Shown: piece by piece, positions 21,361 to 64,000 of the stretch
Numbering within the stretch: position 1 is the first letter of the stretch
Layout: the number at the start of each line of letters is the position of its first letter
Assembly (NCBI RefSeq): GCF_054482595.1
Contig: NZ_CM137008.1
Direction: 5' to 3' (one strand)
DNA length: 64,000 bases
Notes under the pieces: model-generated
The model's database searches: none
Told to the model about the DNA's origin: nothing
The model's input: only the letters and a program-made list of their open reading frames with translations
Made by a program: the position numbers and the translations under genes

Positions 21361-21790
21361 TAAACAAAGCGCACGTTGTTACAATTTACGTTTTAAACCT
21401 ACGTGTGCAATAACCCAGACTACGCCAACAAAAGTGCGTTTCTGGGGCGTGTTTTGCCAGGAGTTTAATCTCGCGTTTCGATGGTGAGCGGGCAAACCAG
21501 ACCGTAAATCACCATTGGTATTCCGAGGACAATCAGCAATAAACGGTAGATTATTGAAGGTTTAATACGCTTAATCTGCATTGTGGATGTTTTACGGTTT
21601 TTAATCATAAATTTGGCCAATAGTTCCATTATTTCAATATGATAAGCCTCGACCTGTTAAAAAGCCAGGCAGCACACTTCAGGAAGTATATAAAAAACAA
21701 TATGTCGTTATATAAATAAGGAAATTGCACTGCATCATGGCATTTCATAATATGCGTTAATTGTTCTTTTTTATATTCTCTGAGGGAAAT

Positions 21791-56772: not shown

Positions 56773-56929
56773 ACTTTCCCTCGCTATGTACCCGATCGTA
56801 AAAATTTCAGCCGCTTTTCTTGACGCATCGGTGAAAAAGTCAATATTTAATACAGGGCTACTATGCCCGATATCCTTCATACAATGACAATAATATTGCC
56901 GAATTCGGCTCTTCCCTGGAGTCGTGTTA

Positions 56930-57628
56930 ATGATCATAAAAAAAAGCGGTGGTCGCTGGCAGCTAAGCCTGCTGGCGAGTGTGGTAATCAGTGCCTTTTT
57001 TCTCAACACAGCTTACGCCTGGCAACAAGAATATATCGTTGATACGCAACCCGGGCATTCCACAGAGCGTTACACCTGGGATAGTGATCATCAACCTGAT
57101 TACAACGATATTTTGTCGCAACGTATTCAAAGTAGCCAAAGGGCGCTGGGACTGGAAGTCAATCTGGCGGAAGAAACCCCTGTGGATGTGACCAGCAGTA
57201 TGAGTATGGGCTGGAATTTTCCTTTATATGAACAGGTTACAACTGGCCCGGTCGCGGCATTACATTACGATGGCACAACCACCTCGATGTATAACGAGTT
57301 TGGCGACAGTACTACCACTCTGACCGATCCGTTATGGCATGCCAGCGTGAGTACCTTAGGCTGGCGTGTTGACTCCCGGCTTGGCGATCTCCGACCCTGG
57401 GCGCAAATCAGCTATAACCAGCAATTTGGCGAGAATATCTGGAAGGCGCAATCAGGCCTGAGCCGGATGACGGCGACAAACCAGAACGGCAACTGGCTGG
57501 ATGTCACCGTAGGCGCTGATATGTTGCTCAATCAAAATATTGCCGCCTATGCCGCGCTATCTCAGGCAGAAAATACCACTAACAATAGCGATTATCTGTA
57601 TACGATGGGGGTTAGTGCCAGATTTTAA
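56930..57628 (+). CDS. yhjY: Outer-membrane autotransporter-like beta-domain protein
   Basis: 232-aa ORF from ATG 56930 after SD ctggag; signal-like N-terminus; C-terminal aromatic residue (…VSARF). Confidence 0.85.
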   Translation: MIIKKSGGRWQLSLLASVVISAFFLNTAYAWQQEYIVDTQPGHSTERYTWDSDHQPDYNDILSQRIQSSQRALGLEVNLAEETPVDVTSSMSMGWNFPLYEQVTTGPVAALHYDGTTTSMYNEFGDSTTTLTDPLWHASVSTLGWRVDSRLGDLRPWAQISYNQQFGENIWKAQSGLSRMTATNQNGNWLDVTVGADMLLNQNIAAYAALSQAENTTNNSDYLYTMGVSARF

Positions 57629-57730
57629 CGTAACAATCACAATTAAAACCATTGAATAACAATAGTTGTGGCGATAGTGGGTGCTAACTTACCAAATAAT
57701 AAATTTGGTGAATAATTGTCGCGTCATTCA

Positions 57731-57761
57731 TTCCTGAACTAAGGCATTTCATTCCGTTCTG
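57731..57761 (+). promoter_or_regulatory. yhjX promoter direct repeats (LytTR-type response-regulator site, YpdB/BtsR-like)
   Basis: Two perfect copies of ggcatttcat (57731-57740 and 57752-57761) separated by 11 bp, about 100 bp upstream of the yhjX ATG. Confidence 0.65.
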
Positions 57762-57856
57762 ATGGCATTTCATGCCGTTTTTCCCCAGGCATAAAGTGCA
57801 CTTCGTTATGGTTGTCGGCAGAGATTTTTCCTTTTTATTACTGCAGGAATACTGCC

Positions 57857-59059
57857 ATGACACCTTCAAATTATCAGCGTACCCGCTGGTTGACACTCAT
57901 CGGTACTATCATTACCCAGTTTGCGCTGGGGTCGGTTTATACCTGGAGCCTGTTTAACGGCGCGCTTTCCGCCAAGCTGGATGCGCCGGTAAGCCAGGTC
58001 GCTTTCTCTTTCGGCTTGTTAAGTCTGGGGCTGGCAATATCGTCTTCTGTTGCGGGCAAATTGCAGGAACGTTTTGGTGTTAAACGCGTCACCATCGCTT
58101 CCGGCATTTTGCTGGGATTAGGGTTCTTCCTGACAGCGCATTCTGACAACCTGATGATGCTGTGGTTAAGCGCCGGTGTGCTGGTCGGTCTGGCGGATGG
58201 CGCGGGTTACCTGCTGACGCTCTCTAACTGCGTGAAATGGTTCCCGGAGCGTAAAGGTCTGATCTCCGCGTTCGCTATCGGTTCTTATGGTCTGGGTAGC
58301 CTGGGTTTCAAATTTATCGACACGCAGCTGCTGGAAACGGTCGGTCTGGAAAAAACCTTTGTGATTTGGGGAGCGATTGCGCTGGTGATGATTGTTTTCG
58401 GCGCAACATTAATGAAAGACGCACCAAAACAGGAAGTGAAAACCAGCAATGGCGTAGTGGAGAAAGATTACACGCTGGCAGAGTCGATGCGTAAACCGCA
58501 GTACTGGATGTTAGCGGTAATGTTCCTGACTGCCTGCATGAGCGGCCTGTATGTGATTGGGGTAGCGAAAGATATCGCCCAAAGTCTGGCACACCTTGAT
58601 GTGGTTTCCGCAGCCAATGCAGTCACTGTTATTTCCATCGCCAACCTTTCAGGTCGTCTGGTGCTGGGCATTCTGTCTGACAAAATCGCCCGTATCCGTG
58701 TTATCACCATTGGTCAGGTAATTTCGCTTGTGGGTATGGCGGCCCTGCTGTTTGCACCATTGAATGCAGTGACGTTCTTTGCAGCGATTGCCTGCGTGGC
58801 ATTTAACTTTGGCGGCACTATTACCGTCTTTCCGTCACTGGTCAGTGAGTTCTTCGGCCTCAATAACCTGGCGAAAAACTACGGTGTGATTTACCTCGGT
58901 TTCGGTATCGGTAGCATTTGTGGTTCGATTATCGCCTCACTGTTTGGCGGCTTCTATGTGACGTTCTACGTCATCTTTGCTCTGCTGATTCTGTCATTGG
59001 CGCTTTCTACGACGATTCGTCAGCCAGAGCAGAAAGTATTGCGTGAGGCGCATATTTAG
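57857..59059 (+). CDS. yhjX: MFS transporter (oxalate/formate antiporter-like; pyruvate-inducible)
   Basis: Start at MTPSNYQRTRWLTLIGTIITQFALGSVYTWSLF; 12-TM MFS. Confidence 0.92.
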   Translation: MTPSNYQRTRWLTLIGTIITQFALGSVYTWSLFNGALSAKLDAPVSQVAFSFGLLSLGLAISSSVAGKLQERFGVKRVTIASGILLGLGFFLTAHSDNLMMLWLSAGVLVGLADGAGYLLTLSNCVKWFPERKGLISAFAIGSYGLGSLGFKFIDTQLLETVGLEKTFVIWGAIALVMIVFGATLMKDAPKQEVKTSNGVVEKDYTLAESMRKPQYWMLAVMFLTACMSGLYVIGVAKDIAQSLAHLDVVSAANAVTVISIANLSGRLVLGILSDKIARIRVITIGQVISLVGMAALLFAPLNAVTFFAAIACVAFNFGGTITVFPSLVSEFFGLNNLAKNYGVIYLGFGIGSICGSIIASLFGGFYVTFYVIFALLILSLALSTTIRQPEQKVLREAHI

Positions 59060-59083
59060 CCAGGAACTACAGATTTTGAACGA

Positions 59084-59110
59084 AAGGGGGAGGAAATCCT
59101 CCTTTTTTAT
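59084..59110 (+). terminator. Rho-independent terminator of yhjX
   Basis: ggggaggaaatcctcc hairpin followed by ttttttatt. Confidence 0.75.
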
Positions 59111-59403
59111 TGCATTTTAAAGAATAAAAATGAAAATATTTTATCTTATTATTTGTGTGGTGAATGTTTTTGTTTTGTTTAATTGATATTTTATATTTAT
59201 TTATTCCTAAAAATAAACGATGGCTTTTTATGTGAAAATGTAACGCAATGATTTTTTTTAAGATTTAAAGTTGGATGCGCTATTAATATATTATTCGTAT
59301 AATTTTATTATTCGTATTTCATTGTATAATCCTTCCTTCAAAGTTGTCGATTTTGATACATCAAGATTTTCTTTTTAATGTAATTTTTTAAATGGAGTTT
59401 TTC

Positions 59404-59928
59404 ATGAAAAAGGTCGTTTTTGCCTTAACCGCACTGGCGTTAACTTCTGGCACTGTATTCGCAGCAGAGTCTGGTGACGGCACGGTTAAATTTACAGGCG
59501 AGATCGTGGATTCACCTTGCGTACTGTCCGTTGACTCTCAGAACCAGGAAGTTGTGTTGGGTCAGGTACAAAAATCTGTATTTGCTGCGGTTGGTGACAA
59601 ATCCCCGGCAAAACCTTTCGAAATCAAACTGGAAGATTGCGATACCACCACGATGAAAAAAGCCAATGTGAGCTTTAGCGGTGTTGGTGATGCAGATCAA
59701 TCTGATCTGATTTCTGTTAGTACTGAAGCCGGTGCGGCGAAAGGTGTTGGTATCGGTATTTATGATAACAGCAACACCCTGGTCGCTCTTAACGGTGGTA
59801 AAGCAAGTGTTGATCTGAGTAAAGGCCAGACGGTTCTCTACTTTACCGCCAACTACGTTTCAACTCTGGCAACGGTAACGACCGGTTACGGCAATGCGCA
59901 GGTCGATTTCAACCTGTCTTACGAGTAA
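59404..59928 (+). CDS. lpfA: Fimbrial major subunit, long-polar-fimbriae type
   Basis: Start at MKKVVFALTALALTSGTVFAAESGDGTVKFTGEIVDSPCVL after SD ggag; type 1 pilin domain with C-terminal ...VDFNLSYE; preceded by a very AT-rich promoter region. Confidence 0.85.
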   Translation: MKKVVFALTALALTSGTVFAAESGDGTVKFTGEIVDSPCVLSVDSQNQEVVLGQVQKSVFAAVGDKSPAKPFEIKLEDCDTTTMKKANVSFSGVGDADQSDLISVSTEAGAAKGVGIGIYDNSNTLVALNGGKASVDLSKGQTVLYFTANYVSTLATVTTGYGNAQVDFNLSYE

Positions 59929-59980
59929 TCGTCTGTTTTACCCATGGCGGCGTAATTGCCGCCATTAGTCGTCAAAATTC

Positions 59981-60679
59981 ATGGATCGAATGATGAAAAG
60001 TAAATTTGTTGCGTTGGCTCTGTCTCTGTTCCTCTCCCAGTCAGTTCTGGCGGGGGGCGTTGGGCTTAGTGCTACCCGTGTGATTTATGATGGCAGTAAG
60101 AAAGAAGCCTCGCTGACCGTACAGAATAAAAGTAAGACGGAAGAGTTTCTGATCCAGTCCTGGGTGGATGATGCCGCGGGCAGCAAAAAAACACCGTTTA
60201 TAATTACCCCGCCGTTGTTCAGGCTCGATCCTGGAAAAAACAATATATTGCGTATTGTAAATACTACCCCTGGCCTGCCGCAGGATCGCGAATCGGTCTA
60301 CTGGGTTAATGTGAAAGCCATTCCGTCTAAAAGTGACGACAGCGAAAACAAAAATGTATTACAGATTGCTGTTCGCACCCGAATCAAACTTTTTTATCGC
60401 CCGGCAGGTTTAAAGGGTGATGTAAAAACCGCGCCAAATGAACTGCGATTTACGCGTAACGGTAATCAGCTCCGCGTTGATAATCCGACAGTTTTTAATA
60501 TTACCTTTAATCAATTTTTTGCGAATGACAAAGAAATTGAAAAAGCAGGCATGGTACCCGCTAAAGGGGCATTAAATATCACATTACCCGCCGGGGTAGG
60601 TAGCGTTTCTAAAATTAAATATAACGCCATCAATGACTTTGGATCGTCAGCGGAAATGATGACTAAAAATGTTGATTGA
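59981..60679 (+). CDS. lpfB: Periplasmic fimbrial chaperone (PapD-like)
   Basis: 232-aa ORF with signal peptide; chaperone motifs (LSATRVIYDG..., NPTPYY-like region); start may be at 59990 or 59993. Confidence 0.85.
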   Translation: MDRMMKSKFVALALSLFLSQSVLAGGVGLSATRVIYDGSKKEASLTVQNKSKTEEFLIQSWVDDAAGSKKTPFIITPPLFRLDPGKNNILRIVNTTPGLPQDRESVYWVNVKAIPSKSDDSENKNVLQIAVRTRIKLFYRPAGLKGDVKTAPNELRFTRNGNQLRVDNPTVFNITFNQFFANDKEIEKAGMVPAKGALNITLPAGVGSVSKIKYNAINDFGSSAEMMTKNVD

Positions 60680-60707
60680 TTAATATCTTTTCAGGAGAAA
60701 TAGCTCA

Positions 60708-63281
60708 ATGTCACGGAAGACCGTTTCACGTACTTTTTCTTCCTTTTCTATCTCTGTGGTGGCGGTTGCTGTTGCCAGCACGTTTTCTGCACATGCCGGA
60801 AAGTTTAACCCCAAATTCCTGGAGGACGTTCAGGGTGTGGGCCAGCATGTCGATTTAACGATGTTCGAAAAAGGCCAAGAACAGCAGTTACCCGGCATCT
60901 ATCGTGTCTCTGTTTACGTCAATGAACAGAGAATGGAAACCCGCACACTGGAATTTAAAGAGGCCACAGAAGCACAGCGCAAAGCGATGGGGGAATCCCT
61001 TGTGCCTTGCCTTAGCCGGACGCAACTGGCAGAGATGGGCGTGCGCGTTGAAAGCTTTCCGGCCCTCAATCTGGTGCCTGCCGAAGCCTGCGTACCGTTT
61101 GACGAAATCATTCCCCTGGCCTCAAGCCATTTCGACTTCAGTGAACAAAAGCTGGTATTAAGTTTCCCTCAGGCGGCGATGCACCAGGTGGCGCGTGGCA
61201 CGGTGCCGGAATCTTTATGGGACGAAGGTATCCCTGCGTTGCTGCTGGATTACAGTTTTAGCGGGAGCAACAGTGAATATGACTCGACGGGGTCTTCCAG
61301 CAGTTATGTCGATGATAATGGCACTGTTCATCATGATGATGGTAAAGATACGCTAAAGAGCGACAGCTACTACCTCAACTTACGCAGCGGGCTGAACCTT
61401 GGCGCTTGGCGGTTACGGAATTACAGTACCTGGAGCCATTCCGGTGGCAAAGCGCAGTGGGATAATATCGGTACGTCTTTGAGTAGGGCCATCATCCCTT
61501 TCAAAGCGCAATTAACAATGGGGGATACGGCGACCGCGGGGGATATTTTTGACAGCGTTCAGATGCGTGGCGCGATGTTAGCCTCCGATGAAGAGATGCT
61601 GCCCGACAGCCAGCGAGGCTTTGCACCCATCGTTCGTGGGATCGCCAAAAGTAACGCCGAAGTCAGTGTTGAACAAAACGGCTACGTTATTTATCGCACC
61701 TATGTGCAGCCTGGTGCCTTTGAAATAAACGATCTTTACCCCACTGCAAACAGCGGTGATCTCACGGTCATTATTAAAGAAGCGGATGGCAGTGAACAAC
61801 GCTTTATTCAGCCATTCTCATCGGTGCCAATTTTCCAGCGTGAAGGCCATCTCAAATATAGCTTTGCCGCAGGTGAATATCAGGCCGGGAATTATGACAG
61901 CGGCTCGCCGCGTTTCGGGCAGCTTGATCTGATTTATGGTTTACCGTGGGGGACGACCGCCTACGGCGGCGCATTAATCTCCAATAATTACAATGCGTTT
62001 GCATTAGGGATAGGTAAAAACTTTGGTTATATCGGGGCGATTTCCATCGATGTGACACAGGCGAAAAGCGAGCTGAATAACGATCGCGATAGCCAGGGAC
62101 AATCTTATCGCTTCTTATATTCCAAGAGCTTCGAAAGCGGCACCGATTTCCGCCTCGCGGGCTATCGATACTCTACCAGCGGTTTCTATACCTTCCAGGA
62201 AGCCACCGATGTTCGCAATGATGCCGACAGCGACTATAACCGTTATCACAAGCGCAGCGAAATACAGGGTAACCTGACGCAGCAATTAGGGTCATATGGC
62301 TCTGTTTATTTAAATTTAACGCAGCAGGATTACTGGAACGACGCAGGTAAACAGAACACGGTATCGGCGGGTTACAACGGACGTATTGGCAAGGTCAGTT
62401 ACAGTATTGCATATAGCTGGAATAAAAGCCCTGAATGGGATGAAAGCGATCGCTTGTGGTCTTTCAATATTTCCGTTCCACTAGGCCGGGCCTGGAGTAA
62501 CTATCGCGTCACGACCGACCAGGATGGTCGTACCAATCAACAGGTTGGGGTCAGCGGAACGCTGCTTGAGGATCGCAACCTGAGCTACAGTGTCCAGGAA
62601 GGCTACGCCAGCAACGGTGTGGGTAACAGCGGTAATGCTAACGTTGGCTATCAGGGTGGGTCCGGTAATGTCAACGTAGGCTATAGCTACGGGAAAGATT
62701 ACCGGCAGCTCAACTACAGCGTTCGCGGCGGCGTGATAGTTCATAGCGAAGGCGTGACGCTTTCCCAACCGCTAGGCGAAACCATGACGCTCATCTCCGT
62801 ACCCGGTGCGCGCAATGCCCGCGTGGTGAATAACGGCGGCGTTCAGGTTGACTGGATGGGTAACGCGATCGTGCCTTACGCCATGCCGTATCGTGAAAAC
62901 GAAATCTCACTGCGTAGCGATTCGTTGGGTGACGATGTTGACGTTGAAAATGCGTTCCAGAAAGTGGTGCCAACGCGTGGAGCGATTGTCAGAGCGCGTT
63001 TTGATACCCGCGTTGGTTACCGCGTATTAATGACGCTGCTTCGTTCCGCGGGCAGCCCGGTGCCCTTTGGAGCAACGGCAACGCTAATCACCGATAAACA
63101 AAACGAGATGAGCAGTATCGTTGGTGAAGAAGGACAGCTCTATATTAGCGGAATGCCAGAGGAAGGACGGGTATTGATTAAATGGGGTAATGACGCGTCG
63201 CAGCAATGCGTGGCGCCTTATAAATTATCCCTGGAATTAAAACAGGGCGGAATTATTCCTGTTTCGGCCAATTGCCAGTAA
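60708..63281 (+). CDS. lpfC: Outer-membrane fimbrial usher, intact
   Basis: 857-aa ORF with SD aggag; usher N-terminal, barrel and C-terminal domains in a single uninterrupted frame. Confidence 0.88.
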   Translation: MSRKTVSRTFSSFSISVVAVAVASTFSAHAGKFNPKFLEDVQGVGQHVDLTMFEKGQEQQLPGIYRVSVYVNEQRMETRTLEFKEATEAQRKAMGESLVPCLSRTQLAEMGVRVESFPALNLVPAEACVPFDEIIPLASSHFDFSEQKLVLSFPQAAMHQVARGTVPESLWDEGIPALLLDYSFSGSNSEYDSTGSSSSYVDDNGTVHHDDGKDTLKSDSYYLNLRSGLNLGAWRLRNYSTWSHSGGKAQWDNIGTSLSRAIIPFKAQLTMGDTATAGDIFDSVQMRGAMLASDEEMLPDSQRGFAPIVRGIAKSNAEVSVEQNGYVIYRTYVQPGAFEINDLYPTANSGDLTVIIKEADGSEQRFIQPFSSVPIFQREGHLKYSFAAGEYQAGNYDSGSPRFGQLDLIYGLPWGTTAYGGALISNNYNAFALGIGKNFGYIGAISIDVTQAKSELNNDRDSQGQSYRFLYSKSFESGTDFRLAGYRYSTSGFYTFQEATDVRNDADSDYNRYHKRSEIQGNLTQQLGSYGSVYLNLTQQDYWNDAGKQNTVSAGYNGRIGKVSYSIAYSWNKSPEWDESDRLWSFNISVPLGRAWSNYRVTTDQDGRTNQQVGVSGTLLEDRNLSYSVQEGYASNGVGNSGNANVGYQGGSGNVNVGYSYGKDYRQLNYSVRGGVIVHSEGVTLSQPLGETMTLISVPGARNARVVNNGGVQVDWMGNAIVPYAMPYRENEISLRSDSLGDDVDVENAFQKVVPTRGAIVRARFDTRVGYRVLMTLLRSAGSPVPFGATATLITDKQNEMSSIVGEEGQLYISGMPEEGRVLIKWGNDASQQCVAPYKLSLELKQGGIIPVSANCQ

Positions 63282-63295
63282 GCAAGGAGAGCGAA

Positions 63296-64000
63296 ATGAA
63301 AGCGGCAATAGCATTATCCTTATTAGGATGCGTATTCGGATTTTCTGGCAAGGCATTTGCCGGAGATGCGTGGGGGCCATGTACCCCCGCGGATGGCACG
63401 ACTTATCACTATAATGTCGATGTGGATGTTGGTATACCTGATGCGGCAAAAAACGTCGCAGGAACGGTTTTACCGGATGTCCTTAACTGGTCTAATGGAC
63501 AAAACGTATCGCTAATTTGTGAATGTCCTGATTCTTATAAGAATGAAAAAGATACTCTAGTACAAGGGGTGAGTATGCTTCCCCCTTCTGGCCGTTCGGT
63601 TGACAGTATGAAATATTATACTTTGACGGAGGAACTGGAGGTTGCGACGAAAATTCGCATCAGTACCAGTGTGTATGGATTTGTTCCTTTCAAAAACCAG
63701 CAGGCGCTGCAAACAACCGGATGCAACAAAGTCATTACTACGCCCTATATGGGCGGCGCAGGTCTACTTTCCTTTGCTATTACTAAACCCTTTATCGGCG
63801 ATTCAGTCATCCCTCCCACGTTAATTGCCGAACTGTATGCCTCCAAAACAAATAAAGATTACGGAACAATGCCAATATCTTCCGTATCTATTCAGGGCCG
63901 CGTCACCATAACCCAGGATTGCGAAATTAAACCTGGCACGGTGCTGGATGTGCCATTTGGTGAATTCCCCTCCTCGGCATTCAAAAACAGGCAAGGGCAA
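63296..64000 (+). CDS. lpfD: Fimbrial minor subunit / putative adhesin, 5' portion (continues beyond window end)
   Basis: Open frame from ATG 63296 to the window end with no stop: MKAAIALSLLGCVFGFSGKAFAGDAWGPCTPADG...; SD aaggaga. Confidence 0.75.
   Translation, partial: MKAAIALSLLGCVFGFSGKAFAGDAWGPCTPADGTTYHYNVDVDVGIPDAAKNVAGTVLPDVLNWSNGQNVSLICECPDSYKNEKDTLVQGVSMLPPSGRSVDSMKYYTLTEELEVATKIRISTSVYGFVPFKNQQALQTTGCNKVITTPYMGGAGLLSFAITKPFIGDSVIPPTLIAELYASKTNKDYGTMPISSVSIQGRVTITQDCEIKPGTVLDVPFGEFPSSAFKNRQGQ

Follow-up and report, generated by a model that had tools for sequence, protein, structure and literature searches.

The direct repeat upstream of yhjX in an lpf-carrying Escherichia coli strain very probably corresponds to the known YpdB operator

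The stretch of DNA analysed here (the window, 64,000 nt of contig NZ_CM137008.1 from RefSeq assembly GCF_054482595.1) contains near its 3' end the gene yhjX (57857–59059, + strand), a target of the regulator YpdB that encodes a 400-aa MFS transporter resembling oxalate/formate antiporters. This gene is annotated in 5422 of the 5426 complete E. coli genomes, and residues 1–399 of the product carry three substitutions relative to a K-12-like strain. In RefSeq/PGAP, yhjX is named 'L-lactate MFS transporter'. Upstream of yhjX lies yhjY (56930–57628), from which it is separated by a 228-nt intergenic region, while the 3' end of yhjX runs into a block of lpf fimbrial genes that begins at 59054. A reading of the interval 56800–59600 as containing an RNA element was dropped, an Rfam scan having returned no matches.

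The yhjY–yhjX intergenic region contains two exact copies of the 10-mer GGCATTTCAT on the + strand, at 57743–57752 (site A) and 57764–57773 (site B), separated by the 11-nt spacer TCCGTTCTGAT (57753–57763). The true span of the pair is 57743–57773 (31 nt), and its 3' end is located 84 nt from the ATG codon of yhjX at 57857. The earlier note had reported this 10-mer twice with an 11-bp spacer in the yhjX promoter, and the sequence, spacing and location hold; however, its coordinates, 57731–57761, are 12 nt too low, so that site B falls outside them while site A and the larger part of the spacer are included. The similarity between both copies extends to 16 nt with a single mismatch, GGCATTTCAT[T/G]CCGTT, and across species the unit that stays invariant is a longer 13-mer box, namely GGCATTTCATTCC for site A (to 57755) and GGCATTTCATGCC for site B (to 57776), the two boxes being 8 nt apart. 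The 10-nt direct repeats and the 11-nt spacer agree with the general architecture of LytTR-type operators such as those of AgrA, PlnC and VirR, which consist of two direct or inverted repeats of 9–11 nt placed 11–13 nt apart (PMC4847170), although each regulator has a consensus of its own, unrelated to those of the others.

Positions 57720–57777 (+ strand) match the K-12 PyhjX SPR fragment at 58 of 58 nucleotides (oligo in Table 1, PMC4847170). This fragment, used to determine the kinetics of YpdB binding, is described as holding all DNase I-protected nucleotides together with sites A and B (Behr et al. 2016, PMC4847170); the footprint borders are given here as relayed in that paper, the primary description being that of Fried et al. 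2013. The comparison with the published footprint proposed by the earlier note consequently yields an exact coincidence with the footprint-derived oligo, and the motif reported in PMC4847170 is the GGCATTTCAT pair itself rather than a different one. Likewise, the statement of the earlier note that yhjX is the main target of the pyruvate-responsive YpdA/YpdB system, whose regulator binds direct repeats, is backed by the literature (PMC4847170, PMC7660256).

In the published binding studies, the phosphomimetic variant YpdB-D53E is a monomer in solution that binds site A with a KD of 1.2 nM, whereas binding to site B, which needs site A, has a KD of 21 nM and is fast in both association and dissociation. 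Mutation of site A abolishes all binding of YpdB-D53E, while with site B mutated A is still occupied, in a single binding event with a KD of 23 nM. These results led to a sequential 'AB-BA' model of pulsed yhjX expression, yhjX being described as the sole direct target of YpdB, and the very different behaviour of the two identical 10-mers has been credited by the authors to their flanking nucleotides (PMC4847170). In K-12, yhjX is induced approximately 680-fold by 3 mM pyruvate (PMC7660256). Moreover, the BtsSR and YpdAB systems are interconnected in UPEC, where BtsS signals to YpdB, and a UTI89 btsS ypdB double mutant loses yhjX induction (PMC9765748). Given the sequence identity and these published data, the repeat is almost certainly the known YpdB (PyrR) operator of yhjX. 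As a sequence feature this operator is already published and is an ordinary, well-understood feature of E. coli.

The surroundings of the operator and its regulator are likewise those of K-12. The interval 57690–57860 is identical to that of a K-12-like strain, and the only three mismatches in the 228-nt intergenic region all lie upstream of 57690. Thus, the 58-nt sequence, the gene, the distance to the ATG and the regulator protein are the same as in the K-12 yhjX operator (Fried et al. 2013; PMC4847170), with no difference at the operator, and the two loci differ in these substitutions further upstream and in the yhjX 3' end and terminator. The window shows one mismatch in 14.7 kb relative to strain XH990, which has intact copies of ypdA and ypdB, genes located outside the window, and a YpdB that matches the K-12 protein at 244 of 244 residues; ypdAB DNA is found in 5422 of the 5426 complete E. 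coli genomes. Since the site, the interval 57690–57860 and YpdB all equal those of K-12, YpdB control of yhjX is expected to be intact in the source strain, and the statement of the earlier note that the site is intact stands. This would mean that an lpf-carrying strain keeps the standard pyruvate-sensing YpdB–yhjX circuit, an observation of little value beyond annotation.

The operator is deeply conserved within and beyond E. coli. The 31-bp core was counted wherever 28 or more of its bases matched contiguously, and on this criterion 5386 of the 5426 complete E. coli genomes possess it, whether or not they carry lpf. The whole 58-mer finds a match in 5395 E. coli genomes, in 3599 of them without any difference and in a further 1723 with one or two mismatches. 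A scan for GGCATTTCAT-N9-13-GGCATTTCAT in one genome per species matched 22 enterobacterial species of Escherichia, Citrobacter, Intestinirhabdus and Raoultella. In all 22, the spacer is exactly 11 nt long and the pair is situated 70–84 nt upstream of a yhjX orthologue; the spacer is thus invariant in length and only partly conserved in sequence. The TCC extension of box A is invariant in 19 species, and the GCC extension of box B is likewise invariant. Furthermore, a protein homologue search, dominated by E. coli, provided three useful orthologues that were more distant and were not chosen by the motif, from E. fergusonii, Scandinavium and one metagenomic contig. In these three, both boxes are kept as [G/T]GCA[T/G]TTCAT[T/G]CC with the same spacing and with one or two substitutions in all over both boxes. 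The promoter comparison thus covered Escherichia, Citrobacter, Intestinirhabdus, Raoultella and Scandinavium together with the metagenomic contig.

A natural allele of site A, TGCATTTCAT, carries T for G at position 1 (57743) and is accompanied by C57722A. It occurs in the sampled members of the two-mismatch class, which comprises about 1700 E. coli genomes, namely 28Eco12, U1 and UTI89, together with AF5, which has one further change (loci L072–L074 and L076); in these sampled members the exact repeat is 9 bp long. Since the native yhjX transcript of UTI89 is still induced in a btsS/ypdB-dependent manner (PMC9765748), position 1 of site A is dispensable.

Two other explanations of the repeat have to be weighed against a YpdB operator. 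A duplication that arose by chance or slippage and has no function might be suspected, given that short-range exact 10-mer repeats are not rare: the 64-kb window contains eight pairs with a period of 10–40 nt versus 2.2 expected, and one pair with a period of 20–23 nt, where a first-order Markov model predicts 0.35. A 10-mer repeat found de novo at such a spacing in 64 kb is, thus, statistically unremarkable. The situation differs when the motif pair is specified beforehand, as one occurrence with three or fewer mismatches was observed in the window versus 0.01 expected, with no second match elsewhere in the 64 kb. However, a functionless duplication is exceedingly improbable, because the core is invariant in nearly all E. 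coli genomes, the boxes are conserved across genera amid an otherwise diverged intergenic region, and YpdB binding is altered when one or the other box is mutated (PMC4847170); published mutagenesis and conservation have already refuted it. What counts as evidence is the exact identity to an experimentally characterised site together with the deep conservation, not the repeat statistics. A lone extra copy of GGCATTTCAT at 21739–21748 has no partner at LytTR spacing and is probably due to chance, 11 matches with one or no mismatch being found in the window versus 7 expected.

A site for a regulator other than YpdB, for instance its LytTR paralogue BtsR, or CRP or PdhR, could also be considered in view of the interconnection between BtsSR and YpdAB and the signalling from BtsS to YpdB in UPEC (PMC9765748). 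This is nevertheless very improbable: direct binding of YpdB to the repeat sequence has been shown (PMC4847170), and induction is lost in the btsS ypdB double mutant (PMC9765748). An inspection of the upstream region, by eye only, revealed no conserved CRP or PdhR consensus. The BtsR motif of Kraxenberger et al. in 2012 reportedly has a different sequence and a 13-nt spacer, which also counts against BtsR. No sequence evidence against the YpdB operator was found.

Regarding the promoter downstream of the operator, a consensus scan of the yhjX promoter region found no canonical –35/–10 pair, which is consistent with an activator-dependent promoter. The sequence CTTCGnTATnnT is conserved in all 19 species and in the three motif-independent orthologues, and this universality makes the hexamer TATGGT (TATnnT; 57807–57812, + strand), 30 nt downstream of box B, the best candidate for the –10 element. 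An alternative –10 candidate, CATAAA (57790–57795), was rejected because Intestinirhabdus, Raoultella, E. fergusonii and Scandinavium lack it, and a possible palindrome in the stretch from box B to the –10 element was dropped, not being kept across species. The Shine–Dalgarno region, CAGGAA (57844–57849, + strand), lies within the conserved GCAGGAAnACnGCCATG. A literature search for the yhjX transcription start found nothing, and the distances to the putative promoter elements are deduced from the sequence rather than from a mapped start.

According to the literature on DNA identical to that of the window, the operator works as follows. External pyruvate activates the kinase (YpdA, or BtsS in UPEC), and an activated YpdB monomer, as studied with the D53E variant, first binds the upstream box A with a KD of about 1 nM. 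Occupation of box A then allows a second monomer to bind box B, located 21 bp (two helical turns) downstream, with a KD of about 20 nM, and rapid release, first from B and then from A, generates the pulse of yhjX expression. The authors of PMC4847170 have proposed that RNA polymerase is recruited by the occupied box B. Our comparison suggests, moreover, that the functional boxes may be the 13-mers [G/T]GCA[T/G]TTCAT[T/G]CC with 8 nt between them, that box B would end 30 nt before the conserved TATnnT hexamer acting as –10, and that, given the lack of a recognisable –35, the promoter probably depends on its activator.

The same comparison points to a degenerate third box, here called R0, with the sequence GTCATTCATTCC (57723–57734, + strand), 8 nt upstream of box A. 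R0 differs from box A by a G-to-T change and by lacking one T, and R0, A and B share a 21-bp register (TCATTCC, TCATTCC and TCATGCC, respectively). Its 12 positions are all invariant in nine representative species, while the flanks contain 0 of 22 and 0 of 8 invariant columns, and 10–11 of the 12 are kept with the same spacing in the three motif-independent orthologues. Thus, the conservation of R0 across genera equals that of A and B, and R0 too lies within the published 58-nt fragment. In the literature searched, GTCATTCATTCC was found only inside the published SPR oligos, where it is not discussed, although Fried et al. 2013 may cover R0.

A three-box operator, in which R0 would provide either a cooperative third contact for YpdB or a DNA-shape element, is possible, but is advanced here only tentatively. 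It would explain why A can nucleate binding while B, with the same 10-mer, cannot bind alone, a difference that has been credited to flanking nucleotides, and it would agree with the invariance of R0 between variable flanks, with the 8-nt gap between R0 and A in every species including the three motif-independent ones, and with the position of R0 inside the fragment said to hold all DNase I-protected nucleotides (PMC4847170). However, the oligo with a mutated site A and with R0 and B intact does not bind YpdB-D53E, so R0 does not act as a YpdB site by itself in vitro, and the oligo with a mutated site B and with R0 and A intact gives one binding event, without a second protomer on R0 in vitro (PMC4847170). 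Alternatively, R0 could be the site of another protein or of the RNA polymerase alpha-CTD. A function of R0 in YpdB-dependent activation, whether by offering a cooperative third contact or by serving as the flank through which A, and not the identical 10-mer B, becomes the nucleation site, is on balance somewhat unlikely. The 13-mer boxes, the G-to-T variant of site A and R0 could inform how LytTR regulators distinguish identical 10-mers, while as by-products they leave the overall picture of the system unchanged.

A close parallel is found in Bacillus subtilis, in which another pyruvate-responsive LytS/LytTR system induces a pyruvate transporter through the LytT boxes of pftAB (ysbAB) (Charbonnier et al. 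2017, PMC5626966). These two 13-nt boxes lie 8 nt apart, that is, in the geometry of the yhjX 13-mers, and the YpdB site has been stated by the authors to be similar in sequence to the LytT boxes (PMC5626966). However, the B. subtilis target is of the LrgAB type and adjoins the regulator genes, whereas YhjX belongs to the MFS, and the comparison made here is one of geometry. An exact GGCATTTCAT-N11-GGCATTTCAT pair is also located between lytR and lrgA in the lytSR-lrgAB locus of four closely related Limosilactobacillus species (L007, L023, L045 and L048), with invariant repeats and variable spacers, and the Limosilactobacillus LytR is 36% identical to YpdB. This pair fits the published similarity between LytT and YpdB boxes (PMC5626966), although it differs from the yhjX operator in its 3' extensions and in having no R0-like box.

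Downstream of yhjX, homology to the K-12-like genome stops after 59053, six bases short of the stop codon of yhjX, where the lpf block begins (59054–64000, + strand, continuing past the window end). The block comprises 5904 bp in all and replaces 152 bp of the K-12-type yhjX–eptB spacer, with a G+C content of 47.6% versus 51.2% in the flank. It carries lpfA1 (59404–59928), lpfB (59993–60679), lpfC (60708–63281) and, from 63296, a gene annotated merely as 'fimbrial protein', and 393 of the 5426 genomes share its junction. A terminator-like hairpin followed by a T run (59083–59108, + strand) lies on the lpf side of the junction, in place of the K-12 hairpin GGGCCAATTAACTGGCCC-T5. The earlier note had concluded from the intact site that acquisition of lpf has not disturbed yhjX control. 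The site is indeed intact, but this says little about lpf: the operator lies 1.28 kb from the start of the block and is equally intact in approximately 5000 genomes without the lpf junction, so that its integrity is to be expected and is uninformative about lpf. The lpf block would, thus, appear to have no bearing on the operator mechanism. As for the protein, YhjX ends in ...REAHI* (400 aa) instead of the K-12-type ...REAHGSL* (402 aa). This was considered as an effect of lpf insertion and rejected, because the same ...HI* end occurs in E. fergusonii, which has no lpf, and YhjX is usually 400 aa long in other genera; the 3' end of yhjX is, thus, a variable junction whose change is not attributable to lpf. 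Within the block, an exact direct repeat of ATTATTCGTAT (12-mer TATTATTCGTAT) is present at 59290–59300 and 59307–59317, with a 17-nt period, in AT-rich sequence that precedes lpfA1 by about 90 nt; it may be regulatory or just reflect low complexity.

The motif scan also returned approximately 46 non-enterobacterial matches, which were set aside as unrelated, most being longer tandem repeats that contain the 10-mer and the rest isolated. Among them are arrays of a 23-bp unit, composed of GGCATTTCAT, 5–6 variable nucleotides and TTTTTGT or a close variant, in several Bacteroidales genera, one Clostridia MAG and one Eggerthellaceae MAG (L022, L025, L036, L042, L050, L051, L052, L054, L058 and L065). 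They are located 63–122 nt upstream of, and divergent from, a gene for an ATPase of about 430 aa with AAA_14 and DUF4143 domains, and approximately four copies were counted by Tandem Repeats Finder in the two loci L022 and L065. These arrays are unrelated to yhjX. Finally, the 23-bp unit GGCATTTCATTCCGTCATTTTTT is repeated 5.8 times in a Bacilli MAG (L066, 5608–5740). This array follows rpoA-rplQ and precedes an ORF of 451 aa without a Pfam match, and the first 16 nt of its unit equal box A and its flank in several Citrobacter species (GGCATTTCATTCCGTC).
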